Virus record (IMG/VR): IMGVR_UViG_3300001336_000002
Coordinates: 37,744-101,743 of that record
Origin: a virus
Direction: 5' to 3' (one strand)
DNA length: 64,000 nucleotides
The notes beneath the pieces are model-generated. The model was not told the origin of the DNA. It did not search any database and was given only the letters and a program-made list of their open reading frames with translations. The number at the start of each line of letters is the position of its first letter. The stretch's first letter is position 1. The position numbers and the translations under genes were made by a program. Positions 633 to 23,804 of this stretch are shown here, one piece after another.

Positions 633-1349
633 ACACGGTAACTTACACATCTAACTCACCCCATAATAATCCAATCGATTTGGATCATCAGAATATTCAA
701 TTAAATACATATAAGCCTACAAAAAAGGCGGGGTATGTAACGGATGAAGACTTCTTTGCAATCTTTAAGAACGCATACATATCTACCTTTGGTAGTAATC
801 ACAACAATCATCCAGAAGACATGTATGTAAACGCATCTGTCGTACTAGAGATCGTATGCAATACTCTGAGTGGTCTGATAGACCTTGATCATAATAGAGA
901 GGCTCATAATGTCAAAGAGATCTGAGGCTATTAAGCATTGTGCTTATGCACTCATGCGAGCATGGCATCCTAGCAAGACAGAAGACTGGTATGAATCAGA
1001 AGAAGGCAAGGACTGGATGGAGATTGCCATGCTAGATGCAGAGGTAGTCATTGATGCCTATGACAGGTACGAGGGTCGTTCATAATCGCGGGGGAAGTTA
1101 GTGAAAGACATCTCCATAACCTATATACCAAGACATATACCTAATAACAATATATCCTCCTATATATTCGATAAGAATACTATCTATCTTAGACAAGACT
1201 TCCTTGACTATGTAGAAGAAGAATTCTTACAGATAATATTGTCTGATGCTGTAGGTTCTTTGGTTCCTGATAGGGTGATAGATGTTGTTTTGGCCTATTC
1301 AGACCAAAGAGATATGGATAAAGATGTGACTGTGGTTTTTTCATACTAA
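629..1349 (+). CDS. Three small hypothetical proteins (629-925, 909-1085, 1101-1349)
   Basis: Overlapping or abutting ORFs co-oriented with the upstream gene; no family recognised. Confidence 0.55.
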
Positions 1350-1352
1350 TGT

Positions 1353-1548
1353 TTATACACAGGTTATCCACAATAGGGTTATTGCATATATATATAAAGC
1401 CGACTTTTCCACATAAAATATAATAAATCCTACTAAAACATAGCAAAATAGGACAAAATCGGACATTTTAGGACAATAATCCCCCGGAAATATAATAGTT
1501 ATCCACAAGTTATCCACAGGATGGGTATATATAAAAAAGTTATCCACA
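1353..1548 (+). promoter_or_regulatory. Cluster of six co-oriented DnaA boxes (origin-like or DnaA-titration locus)
   Basis: TTWTNCACA at 1353, 1364, 1405, 1499, 1510 and 1540 in an AT-rich intergenic region between convergent genes. Confidence 0.75.
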
Positions 1549-1624
1549 AGGGAATACCCAAGGGATATGTTAAAAACAAATAGTATGCTCTGTTAAATAC
1601 TATAGATGTATATAGGTATATAGG

Positions 1625-2134
1625 TTATAGTTTGAGAATATCTACTGGTCCCTGGCAAGTTGGGGAGAAATAAATTGCTGACTGTACAGCCAATTCTATT
1701 CTATCTTCTGTTAATAATGTCTTAGATGTATATAGGGAACCTAAAGCAAAGGGTCCACCACTACCTATAGCAGTTGCTTTTACTTGCGCTACGCTCCAGT
1801 CAGAAGTATTAAATTCAAACAACATTCCATTTGCCCCAATAAGAAAATCTGCAGCATGTTCAGGATCAGCATTGCCATAATCTTCTATAGCAGATTTAAG
1901 ACTAGATGCTATGTCTGTTCTTATTAACCTATATATATCATTATTAGGTATAGGGAGATCGATCATTTCCATTAACTGCCCCGTTCCAAGGGAGGCAGCA
2001 TAACCAAAGATCCATCCATCCTTTACATGGATTTTGGGGCGGGATAAAGAAATCATACTATCTTCATCACTAGCACCTCTATCTGCTCCCATATATACAT
2101 GCTTACCTGTAGATATACCCACAATAACTGTCAT
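1625..2134 (-). CDS. HslV/proteasome-like Ntn threonine protease
   Basis: N-terminal MT-VIVG..MGAD and AIGSGG..ALG motifs typical of phage HslV-like proteins. Confidence 0.75.
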   Translation of the reverse strand: MTVIVGISTGKHVYMGADRGASDEDSMISLSRPKIHVKDGWIFGYAASLGTGQLMEMIDLPIPNNDIYRLIRTDIASSLKSAIEDYGNADPEHAADFLIGANGMLFEFNTSDWSVAQVKATAIGSGGPFALGSLYTSKTLLTEDRIELAVQSAIYFSPTCQGPVDILKL

Positions 2135-2150
2135 GGAGTAATTATATCCT

Positions 2151-2364
2151 AACTTCCAGCGATTTTTTAGGTTCCTTCGTAAAGGTTTTTAATAAATAAT
2201 TAAATCTTAAAACCTCAAAAACTCCCAGCCCATTTTGGGCTCCTTCGTAATACTTTTTTCAAAAATTCTCAGCCCATTTTCCGGTCCTTCGTAAAGGAGT
2301 TTTAATAGAATAGTTTTAAATCCGGTCAAAACTCCCAGCCCATTTTTGAGAGGGATCGTAAAGG
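2151..2364. repeat. Four imperfect ~35-bp direct repeats (AAACTCCCAGCCCATTTT-N-TCGTAAAGG)
   Basis: Copies start near 2151, 2219, 2263 and 2329, separated by A/T tracts. Confidence 0.8.
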
Positions 2365-2639
2365 AGTTTTTATTTAGTTTAAGTTGGACCGGCCCCGCCA
2401 CCCAAACCCGTTGTGTCGCAATGACTTTGTGGGCTTAGTGGCGAAACCTGTTGTCCTGCAGCCTAATCAAACAGCATAGCCAAAAAGATTGCAGGGACAA
2501 TCAGAAGGGACATAAGCCCAATCATCCCAATCATTACCTCTGACTTTCCTGTAGGACGAATAGATGAATCTTGACTCATCCTCTGAACACGACGGGAATG
2601 ATGATATCCTGTAGCCTTGCCAATACCCATAGTGACTCC

Positions 2640-3132
2640 TTAGTTTTTCTGTGAAACAGCAATAGCAGACTGATCTAGCAAGTCATCTAGTGATGAGAAG
2701 TTGCGAGATGAAAGCCCCAGCATATCGCAAACATCGTTATAGCATGAATCTATAGAGGCTTCTCCTTCAGTAGAGGCAGACAGAACGTTGCCGTTGGCAA
2801 CAGATACCGCAAGGGCAAAGGAATCAAAGTGACTGTCAAAAAATGAATACCAAGCCTCGTTGTCAATCATTGTGTTGTATAGATCAGCAAGAATCTCTAC
2901 CTTGTCAATAAGTTCCATCGAATACTCCTAGATCTAGTGTCATCTGCCCTGGCACATTGTCAAAGTGCCCTGAGTTACGATAATACTCTAATCCCTCCTG
3001 AAATGTCAAGATATTGTGAAGGATGCGAGGTCGAGCCTTGGAATGAACGTAGAATGATACGATCTTCCATTCCTCATCGCTCAGTTCCGCATCGTTATAG
3101 ACCTTGATGATTGCGTCTGCTTTCTTCTCCAT
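2640..3132 (-). CDS. Two small hypothetical proteins (2640-2918, 2905-3132)
   Basis: Overlapping ORFs; leaderless start 6 nt after a TAGGAT -10 element. Confidence 0.6.
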
Positions 3133-3284
3133 ACCCGAATCCTATCATAGTTGGGGGACAAATACAAGTGGGGGAGAGGCTGGTAGCGAATCAACCCCTC
3201 CCCCTTCCGATACCTGCACGAACCCTGCGTTAACGAGAGCCGTGTTCTTATCGGCGGTGTCACCATCCTAAGTGACTTGTGTCC

Positions 3285-3620
3285 TTATTTAGATGGTGAC
3301 TCCTTTTGTTTGAGCCAACCGCATGACCATCTACCTCGCTCTACGGTGTCTCTATTGTTGTCTCCTTGTGTACCACCCAAAAGGTGGGCGGGATTGTTAC
3401 AAGATGGATTGTCGCAAGTATGTCTTACGACTTCTGGTAGATATCCATTTGTCTTGTAGAACATGTATCTATGGCTACGCTGTATCTTTGGTCTTTCACA
3501 CCAGAAGAAGCCATATCCATCTTTATCCACTTTCCCTTTCCAAGGCCAACATTCTGTTTCGCCATTCTGTTCTATCTGTGACCAGAACCGCTTTTCTCTT
3601 TTAGTTTCCCAGGTGCCCAT
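3285..3620 (-). CDS. Free-standing HNH homing endonuclease
   Basis: CWPW.G...GYG, HR..F, VRHTCDNPSCNNPAHL..GT..DN motifs. Confidence 0.9.
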   Translation of the reverse strand: MGTWETKREKRFWSQIEQNGETECWPWKGKVDKDGYGFFWCERPKIQRSHRYMFYKTNGYLPEVVRHTCDNPSCNNPAHLLGGTQGDNNRDTVERGRWSCGWLKQKESPSK

Positions 3621-3660
3621 GTATTTATTATATCAGAGTCCTTAGGCATTTCCTTAGGGA

Positions 3661-3813
3661 CTACCGCGCAGCGACGGCGGGAGCCTTGCGGAGACCTGTA
3701 AGATTGACAGAATCAATAAACTTGCCATCCTGATCACGGATAACCACACGCTCCTGAGTGCCATAGCGAGTGTTCCAGGTCTCAAGGTAAGTGTACTTAC
3801 GAACCTTAGCCAT
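3661..3813 (-). CDS. Small basic hypothetical protein (50 aa; not in ORF track)
   Basis: MAKVRKYTYLETWNTRYGTQERVVIRDQDGKF...; AAAGGAGAG SD. Confidence 0.6.
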   Translation of the reverse strand: MAKVRKYTYLETWNTRYGTQERVVIRDQDGKFIDSVNLTGLRKAPAVAAR

Positions 3814-3869
3814 ATTGCTCTCCTTTACTAGTAAGGGTTTTATCTATCTGAATATTCATTCAGAAATCT

Positions 3870-4322
3870 TTAGTTTTCAGACCAGTCAACCTCTACACGA
3901 TCTTCTGAGAATTCTGCATCAACATCATTTTCATAGTATGAAACGCTGAGGCTTGGTTCCAATATGTCTTCCAAGGTATCCATATCAAAGTTCAGGGGAG
4001 CCTTGACAGTACCCGTGAATGTCACGGTAACCTGTACGTCATATTCCTTGCTGATATCAAGATCAAAAATCTCAACCAGGCGTTGGGAAACTTCTTCGTC
4101 CATGTAATCGAAGTTATCCCTGATGTATTCTTCTAACTCATCTACCTTCTCCTGAAGTTTGGTGTACATGTTGGCATAGTTAGAACGACGGGATTCTGCA
4201 ATCTCTAGATCGTTCTTTAGTTGAGCAATCTGTCGCTCCAACTCTTCCGCTGAAGCAATTACGTTGTAAGGATTAGTAGCAACCTCTGCATCTGTGATAT
4301 CTACAAAAGTAGGATCAATCAT
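3870..4322 (-). CDS. Acidic coiled-coil hypothetical protein
   Basis: ORF track; start moved to MIDPTF after a GGAG SD. Confidence 0.65.
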   Translation of the reverse strand: MIDPTFVDITDAEVATNPYNVIASAEELERQIAQLKNDLEIAESRRSNYANMYTKLQEKVDELEEYIRDNFDYMDEEVSQRLVEIFDLDISKEYDVQVTVTFTGTVKAPLNFDMDTLEDILEPSLSVSYYENDVDAEFSEDRVEVDWSEN

Positions 4323-4323
4323 T

Positions 4324-4713
4324 TCAGACTCCAATCTTAGGCTTGGCGTACTTGTTGATGAATTCCTCGCGGGTGAACGAGACAATGCTATCAGTTAGAA
4401 CCCCCGCTTTCCAGTCAAAATCATACAGAGTTACCTCGCGGGTAGCAAAGTCATAGACGGGAACCTTGTGCTCATTGTCTGCAAGGTAGTTGACCGTGAT
4501 ACCCCATCCAAGATCGCCGTTCCAATCCTCGCCAACCAACTGCGAGATGACAATACGAGTCCCATAGGCGGGATCATCAAGGCGTCCAACATTTCGAGCA
4601 TATTCAAGAGCCTTAGCGAACTGGGCAAGCATTCCATATCCTGCCCAATGTCCGTACACGAAGATGGTATTGCCGTCAGTCTGACGCAATCCGAAGTTAG
4701 CGCGATCTCCCAT
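4324..4713 (-). CDS. Phage hypothetical protein (MGDRANF...YGHWAG)
   Basis: GGAGG SD; coherent ORF. Confidence 0.65.
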   Translation of the reverse strand: MGDRANFGLRQTDGNTIFVYGHWAGYGMLAQFAKALEYARNVGRLDDPAYGTRIVISQLVGEDWNGDLGWGITVNYLADNEHKVPVYDFATREVTLYDFDWKAGVLTDSIVSFTREEFINKYAKPKIGV

Positions 4714-4823
4714 TTTATTCCTCCAACGCTAGATAATAGTCTGAATACTCTTTGTCATGTACCGCAAAGTCTATACCTAGTTCCTTGCACAGGTCAAGAC
4801 TTTCTTGAAAGTTTTCCTGGCCC

Positions 4824-7061
4824 TTATACAGGTGAACCATTATAGGCCACCCATTTATGTTCTGAATAATCAAATAAGGAAAGTTGTTCTGGGTCTTCTT
4901 TTAGTCCTTCCTGCCACCGCAGATATCCTGCATAGGATTCGTCTGGCTCTGAGCAGTCCCACCAGACAGCATCCCACAGGCGCAGTTCATCTAGCATATC
5001 CTGAGCCGTGATGATGCGACCATTAGGAAGTTTGTGCTGCAGGGTGAGTGCATCTTCATTGCTGATCTCATATTGCCAGTCCTCGGGAATGTCTGCCCAA
5101 CCTAGGATATATGGATCAGCCTCATCTACAAACTCATCAAAGAATTCCTGCACGGACAACTGAATGTCGGCGGGAATGGGTGGATAAAAGTTATTAGTAA
5201 GGTGCATGGTGATATCGGTCATGAGGTCTCCTCAATCTCTACTGAATCTTGTAAGAAGCCGCCTTCGGTAAGCACGGCATCCTCATGATTATACTCGCCA
5301 CTATAGAATTTTTCCCTAGCCTCATCCATATCAGTAGCCTCTACTTCTAGCGTCCACCAATCTTCTGTTGTGTAACTAATCTGAAACTTAGGCATTAGTC
5401 GAACAACTCCTTTGGTAGAGTATCGTTGGCGGTATCAAAGATGATGCTATAATCCTTAGCAATTTCATCTTCGATATCCCTGCAATACTGAAGTGCTAAC
5501 ATTGGGTTATCGGCCTCTACAACAATGGCTGCTCTGGTAGCGACAAGATACTTAGTCATTACGATACCTCCTGCGAAACGGTGCAGTATAGTGGTGCGTA
5601 ATGGTGCATTACGAGACCTCCTGCGGAATGGGAATAACATCAACTAGCGAGTATAGTGTATTGAGAAGGGTCTGGTCAAGTGCCTCCAGACCTGGCGTAT
5701 CATCGCAAGGGGCAAACCAGCCGTAGCCAGTTTCGGGGGAAGAAGAATCATACTCATAGACATTTCCATCAGGGAAGTAGCCAAAAGTATCAAGTTCTAC
5801 AAACCACTTCTGCATATCAGTATCGAATCCAATAACATAGTGAAACTGCATGGACACTCCTTATCCTGTGTAGGGCTGGGTCCAGTCCCAGGCATAGTTC
5901 TGAAGAATATCTTCTACCCGATCAAGAGCCTCAGACTCATCCTCGGCGTCAATAATAAAACTAACATTCTGAACCTCTACGGTGATATCCATCATTCCTC
6001 CTCATCCAGAGACTCTTCTGTGGTCTCATGAATAATCTGAATCTCTCCAGACCTCATCATGTCATTGAGAATATCCATCTCGTTAGGCTCTGAATCAAAG
6101 TAGACTTCGTAGTCATATGCCGCTTCTTCGCGGGTAGACTCTAGCATGATCGTTCCTGATACACGATAAGTAGGCATCATTCCTCCACAAAGTTGTAGTA
6201 AAGACGGGTGTACCCATTCTCAGTCTCATGGTTGCTATATTGCAACGTACCCTTCACGCCGTCAGACCTGCGCTGAACAATGCAAAGATCATAGAAGAAT
6301 CCTAGAACCTCATATTCCTCTAGCATCTGATCCTTGGTAAGCATATTACTGGCTAGCATGTCATTCCTCCGTCCAATCCAATGCGTGATCGCTAAAAAAT
6401 GCTACTCCGCAATTATATCCATGTCTCCACATAGGAGCAAGGGGTGTCGAAATAAATTCTGGGCAGTTGCTCCACTCCACCTGATCTGGGAATACTTCCT
6501 GCAACTCATCTGGAATATCTCCCAGGTAGCCAATCATGAAGGCCAAAGCAAAGGTCTCGTGCTCATCGCTGGGAATTCTAGGATTGGTGTTCATCTTCAG
6601 CCTCCGTTAGATATAGGCTCTGGTCTTCCACTTCCCAATACAAATTATCGGGGGCGGTACTGTTGAGATAGTCTATTGCATCATAGTAAGTGCCGTCAAG
6701 AGAATCAAGAATGTCAAACATGATATCTTCATCATCTCCTGATGATCTAAACCATTCGATATCTTTGACAAACTGTTCATACATAAGGTCGAAACCTTTA
6801 TCATGAGCAAACTCAATAACGGCTACGGAAAAGTCAAATGCGGACCAATGCGATCCGTCAATGTAGCAACCAGTTTCCACATCAGTTCCAATCTTCGGGG
6901 CGGAATCCGCCATTGGTTAGCCATTCGTCTAATGCTACAAAGTTCTCAGCGAGTTCTCCAATGAACTCATCAACTTCGGCGGCAGACATAAGGTTGATCC
7001 CCACATCCTCCCATGAATAAATCAGTTCTCTGATATTTTTGAGTGCTTCATTAGGGTCCAT
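4824..7061 (-). CDS. Operon of about ten small acidic hypothetical proteins (e.g. 4824-5222, 5609-5857, 5992-6180, 6177-6359, 6361-6594, 6578-6913)
   Basis: Tightly coupled stop/start ORFs downstream of the promoter at 7068-7089. Confidence 0.65.
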
Positions 7062-7220
7062 AACTGCATCCTATATCATGGGTCTGACATTGACAAGAAA
7101 AAATATCCACGGGTTTTTCAAGGCGTTCGTAAGGGTCTTCGTAAAAGAGATTATTTTGTTTTATATGAAAATGCGACCGGCCCCGAAAGTCGTTGCAGCA
7201 CAAGCACTTTCATCAGTAGG

Positions 7221-7293
7221 CGCACCTGATGGGATTTGAACCCACGACCTCTACCGTGACAGGGTAGCGAGCACTCCGCTGCTCCACAAGTGC
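7221..7293 (-). tRNA. tRNA-Asp(GTC)
   Basis: GCACTTG/CAGGTGC acceptor, CTACC-CTGTCAC-GGTAG anticodon arm, GGTTCAAATCC T-arm; CCA not encoded. Confidence 0.92.
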
Positions 7294-7433
7294 GTGCAGG
7301 CAGTTTATCCATACATGCCCAGGTATGTGAGGTCAGGTCCGAAGTACGATCACCCAATCCCCCAGCGCTAGGGGATGATGGGCAGTTTTACATCATGCCC
7401 AGGATGTTAGGGTACTATGACATGTCATCCATG

Positions 7434-8414
7434 TCAGGCAAAGGCGACAGCCTTGACAGCCTTTAGCAGACGATTCTTCTCTGCATTGGTAGCAGCATCG
7501 AAACCGCTAGCAGCAGCGAGGACACCTTCTGCATTACCCCCGCGAGGGTTGCGGAACCAGTCCAGGCGCTCCGTCAGAGTGTTGTACGCACCCCACGCAG
7601 TACCCTTGATGTTGCCAACGGTGTCACCCTGGTAGATGTCAAACAGGGTATCGACCTTGTTTGTCCACTTGGTGACACTACCCTTGACATCCTTGTCAGG
7701 CTCAGGGTAGACAGCCTTGATGATATCGAAGAAGGTATCAGTCGTGATCTCCTTTTCGATCAAGGTCTGCGCCTCCTTCTCAAACTCATCCAGGTAAGCA
7801 TTGGCAAGGCCAAGAGCCTCACGCGCAGCCTGCACCTTGCCAGTAACCGTGGAGGTGTGACGAATCTTGTAGGACTGCTTCACACCATGCAGCGCATAGT
7901 TCAGAGTGTTCTGGCACACAACGCGCACAGGGGTAACGGATGCCTGCACAGCAAGCGAACCATCATGCGAGGTGTGAACCAGCAGATAGGTGTTCACCTT
8001 ATCGGTAGCACCGCTGGGGTCAAGGACTACCTCGCGGTCAAGGGCAAGGGAGCCAAAGACAACCGTGCCATTCTTGATGCTGCCAGCGGTCTCCCAACGG
8101 CCACCGTCAAGCATATTGTCAGCAAACGAGAACAGATCCTCGTTCTGCAGAACCTTGTAACGCTCACCCACAACGCCAAGGACATCGCGGTCACCGTCAA
8201 ACGGATTCTTGCGAGTGACAGCAAAATAGTTCTTGTGTGACCGACCAGGCAGATCAACGTCATCAAGACGAACATTCCAGCCAGCCAGATGAGCGACCTG
8301 AAGCATTTCCGATGTGCTAACCTCGTGGTCAAGGATGGTGCCAAGACCATGCCAAGCGGGTTCGCGCAGGGAAGCGAAGGAAGCCATATCTCCGTACTGC
8401 TCTAGCATGTGCAT
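7434..8414 (-). CDS. DUF932 (phage/plasmid-like TIGR03299) family protein
   Basis: PAWHGLG, Y.VLQN, WETAGS, SHDGS..TPVRVVCQNTL, IRHT and GTAWGAYN motifs. Confidence 0.9.
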   Translation of the reverse strand: MHMLEQYGDMASFASLREPAWHGLGTILDHEVSTSEMLQVAHLAGWNVRLDDVDLPGRSHKNYFAVTRKNPFDGDRDVLGVVGERYKVLQNEDLFSFADNMLDGGRWETAGSIKNGTVVFGSLALDREVVLDPSGATDKVNTYLLVHTSHDGSLAVQASVTPVRVVCQNTLNYALHGVKQSYKIRHTSTVTGKVQAAREALGLANAYLDEFEKEAQTLIEKEITTDTFFDIIKAVYPEPDKDVKGSVTKWTNKVDTLFDIYQGDTVGNIKGTAWGAYNTLTERLDWFRNPRGGNAEGVLAAASGFDAATNAEKNRLLKAVKAVAFA

Positions 8415-8582
8415 ATCATTTCCAATCTGTAGTAACTGATGATGTCATCATCCTATCAAGATGGTCTGACATTGGCAAGAAGAAAACGCAGATTTTCAAA
8501 ATATTTTTTGCAGGGGGTTTGTAACGGGTTCGTAACGATGATCGTAAAAGACTTGACAAAATTAGAATTTCGGGCCGGTCGC

Positions 8583-9222
8583 AAAAAGGTGTCCCCCAGG
8601 GGAGCGGCGGTGGGTGGGGGAGCGCTCAACCCTGAGGGACGTTTAGGGGAGCAGTTTGTCATCATGCTCAGGATGCCATATATGGTTATCAAACCTAGTG
8701 ATTCAGATATTTATTCTATAGAGGGTCAGGGGCTACCTGATTTCAACTATAGACGACTCAACCTGAATGCTATTGTTTGACAGTTTGGGAAGAATAGACG
8801 GACTCCTTTGCGGTTTACCCGCCGCTGATCAGACTTTGGGTAGCGCCCAAGGCGTGTTCTATTCTTCCTAGCCACCTTTAGGGAATCGAACCCTATATTA
8901 CCCAACCAGGGAAGGCAGAGTGCATTACTTTCTAGAATGTTCATGCACCAAGTTTAGGAAGGAGCATTATCTGCATTGCTTTTGCTCCTAAATTCCCAGG
9001 CGACTCCTGATATAGTTGTATAACGTATTAGCAGACCTGGGTGGGGAAGTGAGTCGATGTGGGGGTAGTTATCACAACTACCTGCCTCTTTCCATCTAGT
9101 CTAAAGAAGCGGATCTATTTTATGGGTGCCTGGGCTAATCCGACCCCTACATCCCTCCGCGACTAGATGAGTCCTATTCGGCCCCACGGGTCACATATCC
9201 CCAAGCCACTATTTATTTATGT
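8583..9222 (-). ncRNA. Putative ~640-nt multi-domain structured non-coding RNA or ncRNA cluster
   Basis: Extended -10 TGTTACAAT at 9227-9235, continuous nested stems, tRNA-like minidomain, pseudoknots, GC hairpin plus U-tract at 8583-8640; no credible ORF. Confidence 0.6.
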
Positions 9223-9238
9223 GATTATTGTAACATAT

Positions 9239-10554
9239 TTACTGAGAGGTTGTCCAACGATCTCCACTAGGAGTTGTAAGACGGATTCGATATGTACCCT
9301 GCGGATTGGGCACGATCTCCTGGATGGTGCCTGTCACACCTGACTTTGCAGTAGTGAAGGTCTCTCCGATAGCCAACATATTACTTACCCACAATCTGAA
9401 TAGGAATGGACTTGGTTTGGTTGGTCGCTCCATTAAAGTGACCCTTTTCGTTGCGAACAACGGCCTTTACAGCGTCGCCCCACTTCTCAGTACGAACAAT
9501 GATCTTTGACATTACCCACTCTTTCTGTCGTTGTTGTTGATATTAGTTTACAGTTCTGGCCAGGGATTGTCAAGGGTTTCTCTAAAATCTTCTGCAGTTG
9601 CGTCTATGACACCCTCTTCTATCCACATCCCTACCCCCACCATACCTTGAATAGCGGAGGCACCTATAGAATAGGATATATCATCCAATGTACCAATGTC
9701 AACCATTTCTTTTAAGTCTTGGACTGCTACTGCCACGGCAAGTTTGATATGAGAAACAATATCTTCCCCATTGACATAGCAAATATTGTCAATCATTTTG
9801 TATTCTACATCTGTTTTATCAAACGTATTCATTGACTATAATCCTTAGTTCTGATCTTCCAGAGGCTTTCAGCACCTTGCCGTTGCCCTCCTCATCGACC
9901 AGGGTAAGGATATGCAAGTCATCACCCTCATCTGCATAGTCTGTGCCTACAACATGATAGATGTCGTCTTTGATTAGAATCATGTCCCCTGGCTCAATTG
10001 AATAGACTTGCATTAATTCAGTAGTCATTGTCTTCTCCATTATATTAGAGTTTATAACCAGCCAAAGAGCACAACACCCAAGGCCATGATGAGCGGTAGA
10101 ATGATAATGGCAGTAAATAAAATCCCAATAATAGTCTCAATAGAATTGGGACGAGGTGGCTCATCCATTTAGTGCTCCTTGGGCATCATCGACTACCTTG
10201 GCATGAACAGACATCTCATTATGGATAATCATCAGGGTAGATGCAAGGATTTCATCATCTGTAATGTTGTAAGCATTCTCTATATAATACAGAGCCATCG
10301 CCAGATGGCTGTATGATGCTTTTAGGTTTAGTTGGACAGAGACATCTCTTTCACTCATTTAGATACTCCATCCACGATTGCAGGGCGGTAGTGAAATCAA
10401 GTTGACTAGGATTATTCTTCTCCCACCCAAAAGTAAATACATCTACCTCGCCACCTTCTCCAAACACGTTGGCAGTATGGCTACCCTTTGTCCATCGAAC
10501 GACGACGGTAGGCAGATAAGCAACCATTTCATTTTCTCTAGAAAGAATCATCAT
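9239..10554 (-). CDS. Operon of small hypothetical proteins (9239-9379, 9381-9512, 9548-9832, 9819-10040, 10161-10358, 10351-10554)
   Basis: Coupled ORFs downstream of the promoter at 10562-10583. Confidence 0.6.
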
Positions 10555-10702
10555 GTGTTACACACTAGCATATGGGACTGACATTGACAACTTTTTTACG
10601 AATTTTTTCACGACTTCGTAAGGGCTGTTCGTAAGAGCGTTATGTCTGATTGTTTGATGGCCCGGCCCGAAAAACCGTTGCAGGACAACGGCTTTCGAGG
10701 TT

Positions 10703-10927
10703 CTATGCAATAGCCCCCAAAGTCATTGCAAATGAACGCCTTTCAGCACCTGTCATGCCACCATAGACATGCGGCTCAAAGTCCTCATTTTCGATAGCGA
10801 ACATGAGGCAGTCGTCAATCACGGGACACGATTCACAAATCTCTTTAGCCTGCATGACGCGAGATGTCACTCCCGTCAGGAACAATGCGCTGTCTGCATC
10901 CTTGCACGCTGCCCTATCCTGCCACAT
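10703..10927 (-). CDS. whiB: WhiB-family Fe-S transcription factor
   Basis: WQDRAAC...F...AKEICESCPV..DCL.FA...HVYGG.T..ER (4 Cys plus G[V]WGG-like turn). Confidence 0.92.
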   Translation of the reverse strand: MWQDRAACKDADSALFLTGVTSRVMQAKEICESCPVIDDCLMFAIENEDFEPHVYGGMTGAERRSFAMTLGAIA

Positions 10928-11457
10928 TTGCAATCTCCTTTTTCCACTCGCGCTTCTCGCGCTTCTTGATGATCTTTCGTTCCATCCTAGCATCGGGGTA
11001 TGACATGCAGCACCCCCAGTAGCAACGCATTCCGTGCTTGCCGATATTGCGGCGGGTACGAATCATTCAGCCTCCGTCCATCGAACACCGTCAACGATAA
11101 TATCTTCATCTAGATACATGACGCGAGAATAGTCGAACGCGTTATCTGGCATCATGTGGTAAATGTCGATCCATGCTTTTTCTAGTTCGATGCTTAGATC
11201 CATTCGACTAGATCTCCATCCATGATCTCGTTTACGTCAAGGCCATTGGCCTCTGCAATGGCTTCCCACAGTTCTTCTTCCGTGAACCGTCCGTCCTCTG
11301 GCAGGTAGTCGATGTATGACATGTCAGTGCTCCTGTTCATCTACTTGATCGGTTATGTCGTTATAGAGGGATGTGATGATGTATCCCTGATTCATTAGTT
11401 CGCGCAGGCATTCCAATACCTGATCCCAGTCTGCGCGTGGCATCTCTACGGTTACCA

Positions 11458-12082
11458 TCACACACCTCCAAAAAATAGGTTGGTCATATTGTAGTTGTCG
11501 ATTCTGATCCCCTTGTGGAACGTGATATCGACGCTCGCACCATTGAGCATATCTTCATATTCATCGGGGTCGATCTCATCGACATTGCACAGATATACCT
11601 TGTCGCTGAGAGGGATCACGGTGCCCGTTCCCTCGTGGTAGATAAATAGATTCTTCATGGTTTCACCTTACACTAGGGGTCTGACACTCAGGCCCAGGGG
11701 TCATCATCGGGGGTCGGGAATCGACGGGAGGACAAGGCTTGAGCCATGACAGAATATTCCTCAAGTCCAGAACGCATGATCTCATCACAGGATGAGCAGA
11801 TTAGGTGGAACCGCTCGCACGGTCCCTGGCATAGGAGGCAGTTTGTCTTCATGATATTTCCTTTCAGCAGAATGGGCAGGGAGTCTTGATGGAATCGACA
11901 ATCTGGACACTACCAGCCTCGTTCACCCAACGAGGGCCAACGCGACCAAACTCATCCTTCAGATAGATCGAATAGCGGAACATGGCGAAGGAAGGCTTAT
12001 GGATACGCACAACCTCACCCTTCGTTCCATCGGACATGCGGACCAGATCGCCCACCTTGATATCTTTCACAGAGACCTTCAT
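11458..12082 (-). CDS. Small hypothetical proteins (11458-11658; 11864-12082 SH3/KOW-like)
   Basis: Each lies directly behind a TGTCAG promoter; the 72-aa ORF has an IKVGDLV..GEVV pattern. Confidence 0.55.
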
Positions 12083-12659
12083 GATCTCTCCTTTCTGCTA
12101 TGTCTCTATTCTTGCATAGGGGTCTGACATTCACAAATCGAGAATGTGTATAAAACGGACATTTTAGATCACAGAATGATAACAGAATAGAGAGACATTT
12201 TTCGAATGCGTGTTCGATTCTAAAAAGTTGTTGGTAGACAAGGGGTTTTCAGCGTGTTCTTAAAGTGATCGTAAAAGTTGTTGTGGCACAACAGGTTTGC
12301 GGCCCGGCCCGCCCCGCTCAAAACCGTTGCAGCACAACGGCTTTCATCGATTCATTATCACAAGGGCAGACCACAAAACAATCATGACGACAAAATATCC
12401 AGCAATAGCAACGGGTTTCGGTCGGTATGGTGAAACTAATAGCATGGCAAATATCACCATTTGAAAAAATATAGCAATGGCAATCACCTAGTCTCCCAAT
12501 CGAAATCGACGTTGAAGTCCTTTAGCATACCACTAGCGTCGCCTAGATATCCAGAAAGATATGCTAGTGCTTGATCGGAATTGGGGAATGTCTTTTGGAA
12601 TGATCTTTCACCATAGCCAACGTCGATGGTGAAAGTGACTGTGGGAGTAGGGTGTTTCA

Positions 12660-13217
12660 TCATGCCGCCGACCCCCTAACGATGATCCAGATGAGCGCCT
12701 GAGCGGTGCGAGGGGTGATGCCAAACTGTGAAGCAACGGAGGTGATAGCCTCAGACAACAGACGATATTGTGTCTTGTTAGGCGAGTCGGTGTCCATGCC
12801 AGCAGCACGCATCATCCAAACGTCGATGACGACAGCATCGGTGTCACCAGCGATAGCGCGAGCGAAGGCGTTGGTCTTGAGACCCTTCAGGGCTGAAAAC
12901 CCTTGCGAGACAGCGGCTTCCGCCATGCGAAGATTATTAGACAGGCCGCTAACTGGCTTGCCATTGGCGAACGCATATGCCTTAGCGACATTGGATGCCC
13001 AACGCTCACGAGGGGAGAAGGCAGACACGATGGACGCGCCATGCTCTAGGCTCACACCTAGAATCTCAGCAACGTCTTCCGCAACCTCTTGCGCTTCCAG
13101 ATACCAAGTCGAAGCGGCTTCCATCTGGGCGAGGGTAGCGGTCATGATAAGGCTCTCAAAACGAGCGGCGGCTGATGCGAACACGGAGGTGCCCTCTGGG
13201 GCGGTAACTGTAATCAT
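12660..13217 (-). CDS. Phage protein with DNA-glycosylase-like fold (DUF7178-like)
   Basis: WY..A, SAFSP..W..N, G.KT.AF, VVIDVWM and QA.IW pattern; leaderless. Confidence 0.55.
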   Translation of the reverse strand: MITVTAPEGTSVFASAAARFESLIMTATLAQMEAASTWYLEAQEVAEDVAEILGVSLEHGASIVSAFSPRERWASNVAKAYAFANGKPVSGLSNNLRMAEAAVSQGFSALKGLKTNAFARAIAGDTDAVVIDVWMMRAAGMDTDSPNKTQYRLLSEAITSVASQFGITPRTAQALIWIIVRGSAA

Positions 13218-13409
13218 GGAATGATCCTATCAAAGGGGTCTGACATTCTGAGGGTATATGGAGGATTATTCGGTAACGAAACGGTCACGATGCTTGGACT
13301 TACGGTTATACCTGGCCTTATTCCTATGGGGCTGGGCAGCATTAGAACGACGACGGTCCATGATGGCTCGCTGATGACTATTAGACCTGCGTGACTTATT
13401 CATGGCATG

Positions 13410-13438
13410 ATCCTATCATATTTAGATAATCATGTCAA
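13410..13438 (-). promoter_or_regulatory. Canonical sigmaA promoter TTGACA-N17-TAGGAT, leaderless
   Basis: ATG at 13403 lies 6 nt after the -10. Confidence 0.7.
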
Positions 13439-13540
13439 ATGAAAAAAGTTGTTGTGTCTCAAGGGTTTCTAGCGATTCAGGGAAATATCGTAACCTCGTA
13501 AACCGTTGCAGCACAAGGGAAATCGCGCCCGGCCCTCTTT

Positions 13541-14705
13541 TCAGGATTTGTCAAGTATCTCCTGTATGTCGTTACGAACCTGCAACAACTGTTCGATCAT
13601 GCGTTCGACACGCTTGTATTCATCAGGGTTGTCTGTCGCATAGTACGCACGATCCAGGGGGTCTAGAGTGAGATAGATATCATTGCTAGCCTTCTTTAGG
13701 TTAGACAAGAATGCGTCATGACGCGAGATGGTCTTCATTAGTCCTCCTGATATTCATCGAAGTCTAGGGGCTCATAGTCAGCACACCAACCGCAGATAGT
13801 ATCGGTGCTATCTGCCCAATCCCAGAACACCTCATCACATGAGGCGCAAACAACTGCTTCCAGGTTGATCTCATATGTATCGTTCATGGATTCACCTTAT
13901 CATGATAGTCTGACATTCATCAATGAAAAATAAAAATGCTTTTTATTACATGATCGTAACGAGTGTTCGTAAGGGCTTGACAAGTGCAAAGATTTGGGCC
14001 GGGCCTGAAAACCGTTGCAGCGCAACGACTTTCGGCTACATGGTTTCGATGTGTCCCACCAAGCCCATGAGCATGGCGAAGGCGAAAACACCTAGTGTCA
14101 CAAGGACTTTCTCCATCACAATGCCTCCACAAAGTCGTTGCCGTGCAACACCTTTTTGATGACGGGAAGGTGGTCATCACACACGAGGGTAGACACATGC
14201 TTTCCATTGTACTCAGACACCTGAGTCACCTTGTGGGTAGCACGAGCACGGCTCACGCGGTTATCGCAGAATACATGCTGGCAGACGGGCGAACCGTCGC
14301 GGGTATAGTTAGGCCAACCCATGATGATCACTCACTCTCATTACTGTAGAACACTTGCTGTTGGACACGGATATAGTTGTTGATTGCTTGCTGGATCTTG
14401 TTCATGGTATCACCTTATCATGGGGGTCTGACATTGTGGCCTAGGGCTCATCCCCTTGCGGGGCTTATTTGCCTAGGAAGATTTAGTTATTAGGCGAACA
14501 CCCTAGCCCTATGGCAGTCAGCGCAGATGATGGTGTCATTCACGATGGACAGGTCAGCGGTGTTATTCGTTCCGCAGGTCCAGCAAGCCCACGGCTCGCG
14601 GCGGATCTGTCGGTCATAGTATTCTGTGATGCCCCAGAACACAACGGTGAACACAGCGGGGATTCCGATGAAGATAGCGATTGCCATCAGGATACCTTCG
14701 AACAT
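13541..14705 (-). CDS. Small hypothetical proteins, several with CxxC Zn-finger-like motifs (13541-13738, 14116-14331, 14490-14705)
   Basis: ORF track and promoter positions. Confidence 0.5.
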
Positions 14706-15350
14706 TTGTCTAGCCTTTCTTCTTGTGTTGCTTCGATACTATCACAGGGGTCTGACATTGGACGAGAGGTTAGACCAACTCCTCGTCCACGAACCGAATA
14801 ATCTCAGTGTCGAACGGCTGTTCGATTGCAAATGCTTCGGCGGCTTCACGAGTATCGAACCGTGCAACGGTACGCCCCATGACACGAGCCACGCTATAGC
14901 CTGTACGGGTAATCCACATATCTGTCACCTCCTTTGCTTTCATACCTGAAGACTATCAGATTGGTCTGACATTGACAAATTTGAAAAGGTGCAAATCGGA
15001 CATTTTAGATAACAGAAATGTAACGAAATTTTTCGCTCAGGTGTTCGATTATTTTGATCAAAAATTCTACGCTGAGGTTCGATCAAAACCGTTGCGCTGC
15101 AACGACTTTTGTCGTATAGCAAGGCTGAAAAGTTGTTGTGCTGCAACGATTTTTGCTGTGGCTGAGTGCGCTCTATCTTATTCGAATTTTTGTTCGATTT
15201 TGCGTACCGTACACACTTACAAAATATTAAACTTTAGTTCAAATCCAATTCTGATAAAATTTTAAGAATTAAAAATATGGGCACACAAAAAATTTTTAAA
15301 CTTTCTATAAATCGAATATATCAACTCATCATGCGTAGTATCATATATAC

Positions 15351-21191: not shown

Positions 21192-23804
21192 ATGGCTACG
21201 CTTATACAAATTAGAAGAGATACCCAGACAAATTGGACAACAAATGATCCAATATTAGCATCTGGTGAAATTGCCTTTTCTACCGATCAATATAAAATTA
21301 AAATAGGTGATGGAACTTCTAATTGGTCTGCCCTCGCTTATATGACTGCAACACCCACAGAAATTACAAATCAAATTAATGCAGCAGTAGCAGGAATTAT
21401 TGACGCAGCCCCCGCAGCCCTAGACACTTTAAATGAACTAGCAGCCGCGCTTAACGATGATCCAAATTTCTTTACTACAGTTGCCAACAATCTCTCTAAT
21501 CACGAATTGGATTCCACCAATGTTCACGGCATTGAAAATACGGCAGATCTAGCAACAAAGAACTACGCCGACACTGCTGTGTCAACGCATAATAGCGACA
21601 CTACAAGCGTTCACGGAATATCAAATACCGCCAATCTTGTTTATACAGATGATTCAAGGCTCTCTGACGCAAGAACTCCAACATCTCATAACCACACAAC
21701 ATCTGAAATTACTAATTTTACAGAAGACGTAGAAGATGTTGTAGGTGGTATGGTATCAAACAATACGGAGTCTGGGATTTCCGTTACATATGACGATGAA
21801 GCAGGAAAACTAAACTTTAATGTAAACGATCCAACCATTACTCTTTCTGGGGATGTTTCTGGCTCTGCTACGATGACTGATTTAGGAAACGTAACCATTA
21901 CTGCCACCGTCGCAGATGATAGTCATAATCACATTATTGAAAATGTAGATGGGCTACAAAACGCGCTTGATACCAAGTTAGACTCAGCATCCTACACCGC
22001 TTCAGACGTTTTAACAAAAATTAAAACTGTAGATGGATCTACTAGTGGACTAGACTCCGACTTGCTTGACGGACAGGAAGGATCTCACTACCTAGACTGG
22101 ACAAACACCACAAACAAACCAGACCCTGTAATAACTCTGGCAGGAGATTTAAGTGGATCAGTAACACTTACAGACTTAGAAAGTGGAACTCTTACAGCCA
22201 CTATAGTTGCAGATTCGGTTGCTCTAGGAACAGATACCACGGGTAATTATGTGGCAACCGTAGCAGGAACAGATGGAGTTTCTGTATCTGGATCAGGGTC
22301 TGAAACCGCTGACGTTACAATAGCAAACACCGATAAAGGATCTTCACAAAATATATTTAAAAATGTTGCAGTATCTGGTCAATCTGATATAGTTGCAGAC
22401 TCCAACAATGATACTCTTACTGTTTCGGGTGGAACAGGCATATCTTTAACAACAAATGCAACAACCGATACCCTTACCGTTACAAACTCTGGAGTAACCT
22501 CTCTAACAGGAACGTCCAACCAGATATCAGTTTCTGATTCTACTGGATCAGTAACCCTTTCTACTCCACAGAACATTGATTCTTCTGCAAGTCCAACATT
22601 TGCTGGTGCCACTCTTGACTCAATAAAGGTCGGTATGACAAATGCTAACGAAATTGATACAACATCAGGAAATCTTATTTTGGATTCCGCTGGAGGAACT
22701 GTAGAAATAGATGACAACCTGATTGTTTCAGGAGATTTTACAGTTAATGGATCTACCACCACGATCAATGCAACCACCATTACAGTAGATGATAAAAATA
22801 TTGAACTTGGATCTGTAGATAACCCAACTGACACTGCCGCAAATGGCGGAGGAATTACTCTTAAAGGAACAACAGACAAAACATTTAATTGGTCTGATGC
22901 TACAGATTCCTGGACTTCATCAGAGCATATTGACCTAGTTAGTGGAAAAGTATTAAAAATTAATGGATCTCAGGTTCTTTCTGCAACAGAATTTGTTGGA
23001 AATTCGGCAACCGTTACTGATGGCGTTGTTACTACTGGTTCATATTCTGATCCCTCCTGGATTACAGGTCTGTCATGGAGTAAAATTTCTTCTACTCCAA
23101 CAACTCTTTCTGGGTATGGCATTAGTGATGCACAGCCCCTGGACACCGAACTAACGGCTCTTTCTGGACTAACGTCTGAAGCAGACGCGCTACCTTATTT
23201 CACGGGAGCGGGAACAGCAGCAATAACAATGTTCACCTCCTTCGGCAGATCATTAGTAGACGATGTAGATGCTGCTACTGCAAGATCAACAATGGGTATT
23301 GGAAATGTAGAGAATGTCGCACTGTCAACATGGGCGGGAAGTACAAGCGTCACTACTCTAGGGACAATAGTTACTGGAACATGGAACGGATCAGTTATTG
23401 GAGATTCATACATAGATTCTGGAATTGCAAGACTTGCTTCACCATCATTTACTGGATCTATTACATTAGATTCAAAGGCAAATGTAGATACAACAAGTAC
23501 AACTATTTCTGCAACTACCGCCACAACTATCGATACTCTAAGTGCTTCTTCATACAGAAGCGCAGAGTATTTGGTACAAGTAACACAAGATACAAAGCAA
23601 ACAGTATCAAAAATTATCATGATTCATGATGGAACTACCGCCAATATTTCAGAATACGGTGTCATTGAATTAGGAGGAACGAGAATTCCTCTTACACTCT
23701 CTGCCACCATTTCTGGAACAGACGTACTTCTGCAAGCAACTATTACAGATGCCGATACTACAAATGCGACGGTAGAAGTAGTTAGAACAGCAATTGTGCT
23801 ATAA
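21192..23804 (+). CDS. Long tail fibre with Mtd-N-like anchoring domain
   Basis: IQIRRDT..NW...PILA.GE...KIGDG; DTLNELAAAL; fibre repeats. Confidence 0.75.
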   Translation: MATLIQIRRDTQTNWTTNDPILASGEIAFSTDQYKIKIGDGTSNWSALAYMTATPTEITNQINAAVAGIIDAAPAALDTLNELAAALNDDPNFFTTVANNLSNHELDSTNVHGIENTADLATKNYADTAVSTHNSDTTSVHGISNTANLVYTDDSRLSDARTPTSHNHTTSEITNFTEDVEDVVGGMVSNNTESGISVTYDDEAGKLNFNVNDPTITLSGDVSGSATMTDLGNVTITATVADDSHNHIIENVDGLQNALDTKLDSASYTASDVLTKIKTVDGSTSGLDSDLLDGQEGSHYLDWTNTTNKPDPVITLAGDLSGSVTLTDLESGTLTATIVADSVALGTDTTGNYVATVAGTDGVSVSGSGSETADVTIANTDKGSSQNIFKNVAVSGQSDIVADSNNDTLTVSGGTGISLTTNATTDTLTVTNSGVTSLTGTSNQISVSDSTGSVTLSTPQNIDSSASPTFAGATLDSIKVGMTNANEIDTTSGNLILDSAGGTVEIDDNLIVSGDFTVNGSTTTINATTITVDDKNIELGSVDNPTDTAANGGGITLKGTTDKTFNWSDATDSWTSSEHIDLVSGKVLKINGSQVLSATEFVGNSATVTDGVVTTGSYSDPSWITGLSWSKISSTPTTLSGYGISDAQPLDTELTALSGLTSEADALPYFTGAGTAAITMFTSFGRSLVDDVDAATARSTMGIGNVENVALSTWAGSTSVTTLGTIVTGTWNGSVIGDSYIDSGIARLASPSFTGSITLDSKANVDTTSTTISATTATTIDTLSASSYRSAEYLVQVTQDTKQTVSKIIMIHDGTTANISEYGVIELGGTRIPLTLSATISGTDVLLQATITDADTTNATVEVVRTAIVL

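Follow-up and report, generated by a model that had tools for sequence, protein, structure and literature searches.

A GC-rich core at a constrained distance from TTACGA in the early-gene linkers of a phage of Actinobacteria: a candidate operator

The early block and its linkers

The window analysed here, a stretch of 64,000 nucleotides from IMG/VR record IMGVR_UViG_3300001336_000002, belongs to the 102-kb genome of an actinobacterial phage, a relative of the Streptomyces BE cluster (Stanwilliamsviridae). Near its start lies an early-type block of small, mostly orphan genes that resembles, in gene content and layout, the ~11-12-kb terminal repeat of BE-cluster phages (Table 1). The only recognisable DNA-binding families found among the block proteins were WhiB and, as a weak helix-turn-helix signal, DUF7178.

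The linkers between the gene cassettes share one order on the minus strand: stop codon, terminator hairpin, a GC-rich core GGGCCGG(G/T)C, a spacer, one to three copies of TTACGA, and a -26/-10 promoter that usually leads into a leaderless start. The block genes are on the minus strand, so the natural reading of the element is core first, then TTACGA (TCGTAA on the plus strand). The boundary hairpins are terminator-like with U-tracts, and three of them are strong terminators. The linker promoters are classed as PafBC-type (RecA-independent DNA-damage) by their match to the consensus in PMC8635444, a TGTCRG -26 element that precedes a TAnnnT -10 by ~8-10 nt, no -35 being required. There were 10 such matches on the minus strand (7068-14971), and in six of these putative promoters a leaderless ATG lies 6 nt past the -10.

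Table 1. Coordinates of the early block, its family matches and its linkers, with linker parts given in minus-strand order
Feature	Position	Strand	Details
Early-type block	1189..14207	-	small, mostly orphan genes
HNH match	3285-3620
DUF932 match	7434-8414
WhiB match	10703-10993
DUF7178 match	12660-13217
Core-like site	1481..1520	.	CCCCCGGAAA; CCGG at 1484, then two DnaA boxes TTATCCACA; non-coding, far end of block
Distal linker	2141..2396	-	core GGGGCCGGTC 2387-2396; tandem array of four TTACGA units (TCGTAA on + at 2356, 2289, 2245, 2177), each with an A-tract and CTGGGA/CTGGAA ~16 nt downstream; CCGG at 2322 and 2281, 31 and 34 nt before the next TTACGA; TATAAT -10 at 2141-2146 abutting the last unit; leaderless ATG 2134 of an HslV-like peptidase gene
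Linker after tRNA-Asp	7068..7210	-	hairpin 7186-7210; core GGGGCCGGTC 7175-7184; TTACGA 7139-7144 and 7127-7132; -35-like TTGTCA and putative PafBC-type promoter 7068-7096; leaderless ATG 7061
Linker upstream of DUF932 gene	8450..8610	-	CCCCTGGGGG hairpin; inverted core (GGGCCGGTC on +, 8572-8580), TTGTCAAG; TTACGA 8542-8547 and 8530-8535, variant 8518; promoter 8450-8478
Linker	10562..10695	-	terminator AAAGCCGTTG-loop-CAACGGTTTTT 10671-10695 (-18.3 kcal/mol); core GGGCCGGGCC 10659-10668; TTACGA 10629-10634 and 10616-10621; promoter 10562-10590; start codon 10554
Linker	12107..12344	-	terminator 12320-12344; core GGGCCGGGCC 12301-12310; second hairpin 12274-12298 in spacer; TTACGA 12269-12274, TTAAGA 12258-12263; LexA-box-like TCGAAT-N4-GTTCGA 12202-12217; promoter 12107-12140
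Linker	13410..13535	-	core GGGCCGGGCG 13526-13535, 9 nt past stop codon; hairpin-like CCCTTGTGCTGCAACGG in spacer; TTACGA 13496-13501 and 13488-13493, core-to-TTACGA still 31; TTGACA-N17-TAGGAT promoter 13410-13438
Linker	13894..14032	-	terminator 14008-14032 (-16.9 kcal/mol); inverted core (GGGCCGGGCC on +, 13996-14005), TTGTCAAG; TTACGA 13967-13972 and 13954-13959; putative PafBC-type promoter 13894-13915; leaderless ATG 13887

Scarcity of CCGG and its spacing from TTACGA

The original prediction had located CCGG by eye and judged it scarce. The count over the whole 101,743-bp genome (101.7 kb) returned exactly those 12 sites and no others, against an expectation of ~106 (Markov) to 169 (composition). 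All 12 are inside the window, and 10 fall in non-coding linkers of the one 13-kb block of small minus-strand genes. The site at 1484, previously set apart as lying elsewhere, is correctly placed, yet it too is a non-coding, core-like site adjoining DnaA boxes; the same pairing of core and DnaA box is also seen in relatives.

The shortage of CCGG belongs to a general purge that affects GC-rich palindromes and is no property of the linker element. AGCT is absent from the genome (~277-361 expected), 17 of the 32 GC-rich 6-mer palindromes are absent with ~5-12 copies of each expected in the DNA outside the block, and CCGG is missing from 71 of 80 related loci. The genome shows restriction-site avoidance, its short palindromes being far under expectation genome-wide.

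The block holds 15 of the 32 genome copies of TCGTAA. For each of the nine CCGG sites between 2281 and 13999, a TCGTAA starts 32-38 nt upstream on the plus strand (33 nt five times, and 32, 35, 36 and 38 nt once each). The fixed spacing that had been proposed holds against random controls: none of 200,000 random placements reached nine of nine, and the best reached 3-4 of nine, even with placement confined to non-coding DNA. In minus-strand order, TTACGA starts 30-36 nt after the start of the core (30-31 nt at five of seven sites), and the gap between the two is 23-24 nt at six of seven sites and 30 nt at the 7177 site. The spacing holds with or without a hairpin in the spacer (13529 and 12304 sites). 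The CCGG sites at 2281 and 2322, within the tandem array of four TTACGA units, have GACCGGA(A/T) flanks and keep the usual spacing to the next TTACGA. We verified that the spacer sequences are not conserved and that two of the seven cores (8575 and 13999) are inverted. The repeats described at each junction are present as well, but exact TCGTAA occurs only once or twice per junction, the rest of the TCGTAA-like copies being variants such as TCTTAA at 12258 and TTTGTAA near 8518.

Lineage-specific cores in relatives

The bipartite element, with a spacer constrained in length to about three helical turns, placed at cassette boundaries and used in either orientation, is real and conserved. The same linker order was found in 80 IMG/VR relatives, in which the architecture is kept and the core words are replaced. 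The relatives carry lineage-specific cores, among them GGTCGGGC, GTCGAC, CCCGGG and GGGGCGAC, and the core differs also at orthologous places (for instance upstream of DUF932 and after the tRNA). Because CCGG-free cores sit at the same position in relatives, CCGG is not the functional unit it had been taken for. Each core word is confined to the early block of its own phage; over whole records this holds for 13 of 13 copies in L022, 29 of 29 in L005, 9 of 9 in L019 and 7 of 7 in L008, the last against 20 for a control word. The flanks of the 29 CCCGGG in L005 vary, indicating that the hexamer itself is the conserved part. Orientation also changes, the orthologous core of the DUF932 linker being reversed in L004. 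Among 549 TTACGA sites of relatives, C stands at +21 and at +22 in 56-57%, so that TTACGA-N15-CC is conserved.

The early linkers of cultured BE-cluster phages are homologous by layout, with small leftward genes, a hairpin, a GC-rich palindromic core unique to the region, and a promoter. These phages encode a DUF932 protein that is 57% identical and a portal that is 44-46% identical, contain TTACGA-N15-CCGG units, and have a minority of their cores inverted. In Yaboi (NC_048730), Jay2Jay (NC_029098) and Coruscant (NC_070782), palindromic cores of 11-15 bp are restricted to the terminal repeats (43/43, 26/26 and 30/30 copies, respectively) and form the inverted repeats GCCG-CCC-CGGC, GTCCG-N3-CGGAC and TGGCGCC-C-GGCGCCA. 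There the core is phased directly with a TTGnnn-N17-TAGACT/TAAGCT promoter, and TTACGA occurs only as arrays at the genome end, whereas the phage studied here has a core of 9-10 bp, TTACGA in every boundary linker and promoters of the PafBC type. In Coruscant, 12 of 14 promoters have 46 nt between the end of the core and the -10 hexamer; in the other two phages this distance falls into classes ~10 nt apart (Jay2Jay: 25, 37 six times, 44-48, 55 and 65; Yaboi: 29, 37-39 and 46-48). An upstream factor site that stays in helical phase with its promoter would show this pattern, and such phasing with early promoters points to transcription control. The core-to--35 gap in Coruscant (23 nt) equals the core-to-TTACGA gap in the present phage. 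We found no paper describing BE-cluster linker motifs or the core/TTACGA layout.

Differences in the core between lineages could reflect differences between hosts, if the core were read by a host transcription factor or by a host restriction-modification enzyme that is exploited or tolerated. The linkers do hold matches to host-factor motifs (the PafBC -26 element of PMC8635444, DnaA boxes, LexA-type boxes and CRP-like palindromes), and the genomes bear the mark of heavy restriction pressure. However, Yaboi and Jay2Jay share one isolation host strain (Streptomyces lividans) and have different cores, L008 and L010 differ in the core of an orthologous linker whose flanking genes are ~90% identical, and a restriction target repeated 7-29 times would be lethal. 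It seems very unlikely that a host factor is the reader.

Possible roles of the element

The core might have no dedicated protein at all and act passively, as part of the terminator or as an insulator, a GC block that slows polymerase and so raises termination or blocks read-through, with linker duplication and gene conversion keeping it uniform within a genome. We consider this unlikely. In all lineages the core does lie 0-12 nt past a hairpin or stop codon, both orientations work, GC-richness is the property common across lineages, three hairpins are the strong terminators noted above, and promoters within cassettes that have no upstream terminator also have no core. Against it, an exact word is conserved between varying flanks (the 29 CCCGGG of L005, a 12-mer in Coruscant), and the distance to the promoter or TTACGA is fixed or helically phased, for which a terminator part would have no need. 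Moreover, the core precedes the hairpin at 13529, and no core accompanies the terminators at 15085-15153.

Mosaicism is strong in the block, and the order of the cassettes varies between relatives, with the tRNA before DUF932 in L004-L007 and after it here. Three breakpoint cases lie at or beside linkers: L008 and L010 diverge 3-4 nt past the core, L081 and L082 have one and the same 65-nt linker joining unrelated cassettes, and L029 has a promoter module duplicated at 100% identity. These cases would suit linkers that are patches of homology for cassette shuffling by ordinary recombination, their conserved words being leftovers. Such a role has been proposed for the PeSL (promoter-early stem-loop) cassettes of T4-like phages (PMC2839356, PMC4122927), which are likewise repeated terminator and early-promoter composites flanking small orphan early genes in a plastic region, with gain, loss and exchange of cassettes; in the phage studied here, the PeSL-type succession of hairpin and early promoter is present in seven linkers. 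PeSLs are long and near-identical and have neither a separate palindromic core nor a second element upstream, whereas conservation here is limited to short words at fixed spacing and the core varies by lineage. The conserved words (6-10 nt) are too short for efficient homologous exchange, and shuffling would leave the lineage-specific palindromes and the promoter phasing unexplained. Breakpoints between close relatives lie mostly at start or stop codons, away from cores and linkers. We find it quite unlikely that shuffling is the main function of the linkers; it probably accompanies a regulatory role as a by-product.

The suggestion of integron-like cassette recombination was not borne out either. 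Six-frame searches of the whole genome found no tyrosine recombinase (no PF00589 match at E <= 1; control genomes all matched), no serine recombinase and no Y1 transposase, and breakpoints are mostly off the cores. As the genome encodes no recombinase, this reading lacks one of its defining features. The resemblance to integron attC/attI lies in a recurrent element that bounds small gene cassettes. Here, however, the IntI-type tyrosine recombinase expected beside the array is missing, cassettes have their own -26/-10 promoters with leaderless starts, and the hairpins are terminator-like, not the long imperfect hairpins of attC.

Alternatively, a lineage-specific enzyme, brought into position by a TTACGA-bound protein, could nick, cut or modify the core, which would then serve in packaging or in the formation of terminal repeats, in stepwise entry of the DNA or in site-specific exchange of cassettes. 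Recognition of short GC-rich palindromes with fast-changing specificity is typical of nucleases and methylases, the cores of cultured relatives are limited to the terminal repeat, with TTACGA arrays adjoining the physical genome end, and an HNH gene is present both in the block and in BE-phage terminal repeats. We nonetheless regard this as highly improbable: the genome also encodes no C5 DNA methylase, the mixed orientation of the cores would put nicks on both strands, against the one-strand rule of T5-type systems, and the sites are phased with promoters, one per early operon and not at the ends. The data examined, assembled contigs of public runs, offered no support for nicking, cleavage, modification or stepwise ejection.

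With moderate confidence, we favour the reading that the element is an operator for a phage-encoded early-gene regulator combined with a conserved second element. It builds on what was directly observed, namely the anatomy of the linkers and its statistics, their conservation, the lineage-specific cores and their early-block confinement, and promoter phasing in relatives. Linkers composed of a terminator and a promoter set the early (host-takeover type) transcription units apart, and the element would form their upstream half. Its GC core would be the operator of a sequence-specific, probably dimeric, probably phage-encoded regulator, and each lineage would have its own palindromic version in the early block only. 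TTACGA would be a second, family-wide cis-element, the upstream half of a bipartite TTACGA-N15-CC(N)GG(A/G) unit with an A-tract, and at six of seven sites it stands as far past the core as the -35 hexamer does in cultured relatives. On one face of the helix, contact may be made between the two bound factors or between the regulator and RNA polymerase, and the boundary promoters may be switched on or off jointly. We infer the protein binding, the phage origin of the protein and the direction of regulation. We propose that CCGG persists only in the block because the core is selected for in a genome otherwise purged of restriction-type palindromes.

Several observations count against an operator. 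The core is short for one, and its distance to the -10 in this phage (98, 103, 107 and 123 nt) is unphased with the PafBC-type promoters; in L005, it stands a variable 2-8 nt before the -26 box. Five of the 11 PafBC-type promoters in the block have neither core nor TTACGA, so neither is required for promoter function as such, and no recognisable -10 hexamer was found downstream of TTACGA. Tandem TTACGA units occur in the gene-free first 800 bp of cultured-phage genomes, and arrays at a genome end suit promoter control no better than a role at the DNA level or as a barrier. Neither a sigma factor nor a clear repressor was found, and the early-block proteins are almost all orphans.

An operator of this kind would have parallels. 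Class I CRP sites and the p4 sites of phage phi29 are upstream activator sites in helical phase with the promoter. The cultured relatives resemble them in having an inverted repeat whose centre lies ~45-85 bp before the start point, at distances that change by about one helical turn; here, in contrast, phase is kept with TTACGA and not with the -10 hexamer, and the core binder is putative.

Tentatively, the operator reading might extend to every lineage, aquatic relatives and cultured Streptomyces BE phages alike, each using a private GC-rich palindrome to mark the early operons of its terminal repeat and a private, fast-evolving phage protein to read the mark; we think this possible but doubtful. 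If true, the palindrome would be an address code coupling all early promoters to one switch, kept despite the strong purge of such words from the remaining genome. The code might stop co-infecting relatives from cross-regulating one another, or mark sites of programmed DNA action. The stoperators of cluster A mycobacteriophages are asymmetric repressor sites of 13-14 bp that are spread genome-wide in temperate phages and act downstream of promoters, whereas the cores described here are palindromic, limited to the early block and upstream of promoters. In both cases, an actinophage has many short phage-specific sites in small intergenic gaps, most of them oriented the same way with respect to transcription, and specificity differs among related phages.

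A spaced element at the boundaries of early gene cassettes

The whole phage genome contains 12 copies of CCGG, compared with 106 (Markov) to 169 (composition) expected. The original prediction had called CCGG scarce, and the positions it gave match all 12 copies exactly. It had also proposed that TCGTAA precedes CCGG at a kept distance, and this was found at all nine copies of CCGG between 2281 and 13999, at 32-38 nt. When nine sites were placed at random 200,000 times, at most 3-4 of them fitted, far from the observed arrangement, even within non-coding DNA. As predicted, the spacers have no similarity between sites, yet the distance is kept. A tenth CCGG, at 1484, is non-coding and core-like and adjoins DnaA boxes. 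Perfect DnaA boxes are clustered in this region and also upstream of the DUF932 gene in the related IMG/VR loci L008-L013, L031 and L040-L081.

The minus strand carries the genes of the early block, so the natural order is the GC-rich core, then TTACGA, the minus-strand reading of TCGTAA. Read this way, the two starts are 30-36 nt apart, with five of the seven sites at 30-31 nt. This distance is unchanged at 12304 and 13529, where a hairpin lies inside the spacer. The parts of the linker, ordered on the coding strand, are listed in the table. Terminators were judged by folding each of the seven linker hairpins individually, two of which proved weak. A generic scan for sigma-70 promoters and terminators found as much in shuffled sequence, because TTTT(C) tails escape its rule for U-tracts. 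One possible reading of the core next to these hairpins, the likeliest of three alternatives to the one we prefer, is that it has a passive role as part of a terminator or insulator.

In Actinobacteria, the PafBC-type hybrid promoter combines a -26 element with a -10 (PMC8635444), and the linker promoter matches that consensus. In six of these promoters a leaderless ATG lies 6 nt past the -10. Five more PafBC-type promoters lie inside cassettes without terminator, core or TTACGA. The element is therefore a feature of cassette boundaries that is dispensable for promoter function as such. Other motifs were also seen. One linker and the divergent region have LexA-type SOS boxes (TCGAAC-N4-GTTCGA). 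Between TTACGA and the promoter, L040-L081 have CRP/GlxR-like palindromes (TGTGA-N6-TCACA) and a recurrent (A/T)TCGGACA motif, about 60-110 nt from DUF932 on its upstream side; both motifs were also seen in L004, L007, L021 and L052, and TCGGACA-like repeats are also present in the window.

Linker parts, cores and located features (window coordinates unless a record is named)
Feature	Location	Strand	Description
Linker part 1		-	stop codon of previous gene
Linker part 2		-	hairpin AAAGCCGTTG-loop-CAACGGTTTT, conserved; U-tract and folding energy of -17 to -18 kcal/mol in three copies
Linker part 3		-	core GGGCCGG(G/T)C
Linker part 4		-	gap of 23-24 nt (30 nt at 7177 site); TTGTCAAG in some
Linker part 5		-	TTACGA, mostly two copies 12-13 nt apart
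Linker part 6		-	A-tract and C(C/G/T)TGGA about 15 nt past last TTACGA
Linker part 7		-	variable 32-58 nt, then promoter (TTGTCA)A-TGTCAGACC-N-TGATAGGAT
Early block	1189-14207	-	small genes, nearly all orphans
tRNA-Asp(GTC)	7219-7293	-	within early block
TTACGA array	2177-2361		four units
DnaA boxes	1353-1548		perfect TTATCCACA, clustered; seen at about 1500-1520
LexA-type boxes	14810-14825 (perfect); 12202-12217; 15033-15050; 15176-15195		
TCGGACA-like repeats	1447-1480; 12143-12167; 14984-15008		
ORF-free region	8583-9235	-	9185-9360 matches L004, L006, L007
Mtd_N protein gene, then repeat-rich gene	21192-23804; 24330-25415		
Core, L022	record of 90.7 kb		GGTCGGGC; 13/13 copies in one 14-kb stretch
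Core, L005	record of 48 kb		CCCGGG; 29/29 copies in 12.7 kb
Core, L008	record of 80 kb		GTCGAC; 7/7 copies in 7.7 kb; control word, 20
Core, L013, L018-L020			GGGGCGAC/CGCCCC
Core, L019	record of 112 kb		GGGGCGRSC; 9/9 copies in 10.6 kb
Core, L031			GCCGACCC
Core, L054, L080			GCCCGCA-N6-TGCGGGG
Core, Yaboi	two terminal repeats		GCCG-CCC-CGGC; 43/43 inside; core end to -10: 29, 37-39, 46-48 nt
Core, Jay2Jay	two terminal repeats		GTCCG-N3-CGGAC(A); 26/26 inside; core end to -10: 25, 37 (x6), 44-48, 55, 65 nt
Core, Coruscant	two terminal repeats		TGGCGCC-C-GGCGCCA; 30/30 inside; core end to -10: exactly 46 nt in 12/14 promoters

Cores of related and cultured phages

CCGG is missing from 71 of 80 related loci found via the DUF932 protein, and the linker architecture and TTACGA are kept in these loci. 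The predicted element is thus present in relatives, and CCGG itself is not the functional unit. In linkers that are orthologous, namely those following the tRNA and those upstream of DUF932, each lineage has its own core, and in the four whole records (L022, L005, L008 and L019) this core is confined to the early block. One transition separates GGCCGGGC from the L022 core, and L004 has the counterpart of the 8575 core in the opposite orientation. The sequence on either side of CCCGGG in L005 differs from copy to copy, so the word itself is maintained, which argues for recognition by a putative trans-acting factor rather than copying of whole linkers. A mini-cassette array with a unit of about 190 bp was seen at L005:1600-5000. 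Each unit has a gene of about 45-50 codons with its TAG inside a small hairpin, followed by CCCGGG and, 2-8 nt later, a PafBC-type promoter with a leaderless start; all 29 CCCGGG of the record were assigned to the array. Contigs from the public sequencing run X3 that align to 12283-14013 represent related populations with GCGGGTCGGTC-TCC-GACCGACCGC, a perfect hairpin of the GGTCGG-type core, in place of the CCGG core.

The strongest evidence comes from the cultured Streptomyces phages Yaboi, Jay2Jay and Coruscant. Intergenic gaps in their terminal repeats have a hairpin, a core and then TTGnnn-N17-TAGACT or TAAGCT. The cores are 11-15-bp palindromes found in the terminal repeats only, with the core centre near -65. 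Distances from core to -10 in Jay2Jay and Yaboi fall into classes about one helical turn apart. Such phasing is characteristic of an upstream site at which a putative bound protein would have to face the polymerase. Coruscant linkers also have a second inverted repeat, TAGATG-N7-CATCTA, between core and -35.

Yaboi and Jay2Jay have a common isolation host, Streptomyces lividans JI 1326, and different cores. L008 and L010 share about 90% identity in the surroundings of an orthologous linker, and their cores differ. Because of these two cases, core specificity would most simply be set by the phage.

Taken together, these data show a real element that is not placed at random and is conserved within a large phage family. 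We consider it somewhat more probable than its converse that the core is an operator, which would be read by a putative phage-specific regulator of early operons, with TTACGA as a second conserved unit, kept three helical turns away and predicted to be bound by protein. We found no paper describing these core and TTACGA motifs. They amount to a concrete, testable grammar of regulation for the early or host-takeover region in a family of large actinophages that is widespread and barely studied, and anti-defence and host-control functions are likely among the orphan genes of that region. Because the architecture is shared with cultured phages, pull-down experiments can look directly for the putative regulator, and the sites are open to mutation.

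The TTACGA unit and candidate partners

Among 549 distinct TTACGA sites in relatives, C is present at +21 and +22 in 56-57%, with an A-tract before, defining the unit as TTACGA-N15-CC(N)G(A/G). The unit reads TTACGA-N15-(T)CCGG(A/G) in Streptomyces BE-cluster (BE) phages, whereas CCGG-avoiding aquatic relatives have CCTGGA or CCCAGA. In Yaboi, Jay2Jay and Coruscant, the gene-poor or gene-free first 220-780 bp contain 4-6 TTACGA-N15-CCGG units in tandem, every one of them on the minus strand. Yaboi and Coruscant have one extra unit near the inner repeat boundary; otherwise BE units are in the end arrays only. A matching array closes the block in the studied phage, in which, unlike in BE phages, units are also in every boundary linker.

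Core and first TTACGA are 23-24 nt apart, which equals the core-to--35 gap in Coruscant (23 nt). No usable -10 hexamer follows TTACGA, and the distance from TTACGA to the PafBC-type promoter in relatives varies from 7 to 73 nt. In some relatives TTACGA is at the -35 place of that promoter, or the second copy has TTGTCA 17-19 nt upstream; a role as a canonical -35 or -10 hexamer was rejected as not general across relatives. For the array (2177-2400), two further readings of the sequence around TTACGA, mini-ORFs and a hairpin with a UACG loop, were also rejected, as they are not conserved in relatives. DnaA boxes are often beside TTACGA in relatives; in many, the DUF932 promoter region has two, directly beside TTACGA or after the GC core.

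A search for a phage sigma factor for TTACGA-N15-CCnGGA found none; one weak region-4 match was the N-terminal helix-turn-helix of a 174-aa protein. ParB-like proteins, considered as the binder, occur in BE terminal repeats and were not found in the studied block.

Recombination, DNA action and the phage genome

The original prediction had suggested integron-like exchange at the cores. This is not borne out: recombinases of the tyrosine and serine types and a Y1 transposase are all missing from the genome, and each cassette has a promoter of its own. Most replacements between near-identical relatives are bounded by start or stop codons, and three cases are at or beside linkers. Cassette order varies among relatives: the tRNA precedes DUF932 in L004-L007 and follows it in the studied phage, so the order has been rearranged. 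Similar linkers, the PeSL motifs of T4-like phages, are described as repeats that help ordinary recombination (PMC2839356, PMC4122927), and our breakpoint and cassette-order data fit that process rather than core-specific exchange. A role of the linkers as a recombination scaffold is the next likeliest of the three alternatives. Contig joints in related populations (e.g., a skip of 10598-10670) were seen in Logan contigs at low likeness and set aside as evidence.

The third and least likely of these alternatives is that the core is a site of DNA action (nicking, modification or stepwise ejection), as also originally proposed. Against this, core orientation is mixed and the cores of cultured relatives are phased with promoters; against modification, the genome encodes no C5 DNA methylase.

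CCGG is not the only scarce word. AGCT has no copies genome-wide, compared with 277-361 expected; 17 of 32 GC-rich hexamer palindromes have none, with about 5-12 of each expected outside the block; and ACGT and GTAC are also low. The genome is generally purged of restriction-type palindromes. The purged words vary among relatives: of 80 loci, 15 lack AGCT, which is common in the remainder. Because N in the core form GNCCGGNC is non-complementary, the cores never create ACCGGT, CCCGGG, GCCGGC or TCCGGA. A functional site and restriction avoidance thus pull in opposite directions, with CCGG kept in the cores of some lineages and a CCGG-free core one substitution away in others.

The window spans bases 37,744-101,743 of an IMG/VR record that is 101,743 bp long with a 72-bp direct repeat at its end. 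Gene products of the window include a portal, prohead protease, tape measure, DNA polymerase III alpha, RecA, DnaB-like helicase, ThyX and two WhiB proteins, which point to an actinobacterial host. A nucleotide-level search of cultured phages gave no match, and kinship was detected in proteins only. The closest cultured kin are the BE-cluster siphoviruses (Stanwilliamsviridae), with portals 44-46% identical and a DUF932 protein 57% identical. Counterparts of the early genes, including DUF932, occupy the 11-12-kb direct terminal repeat of BE phages. The tRNA was the sole match in an Rfam search. The ORF-free region is conserved at the nucleotide level in relatives; it had no Rfam match, and ARAGORN found no tmRNA there, whereas BE phages carry one. 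Outside the early block, a gene for an Mtd_N protein (N-terminal domain of the major tropism determinant) is followed by a repeat-rich gene.
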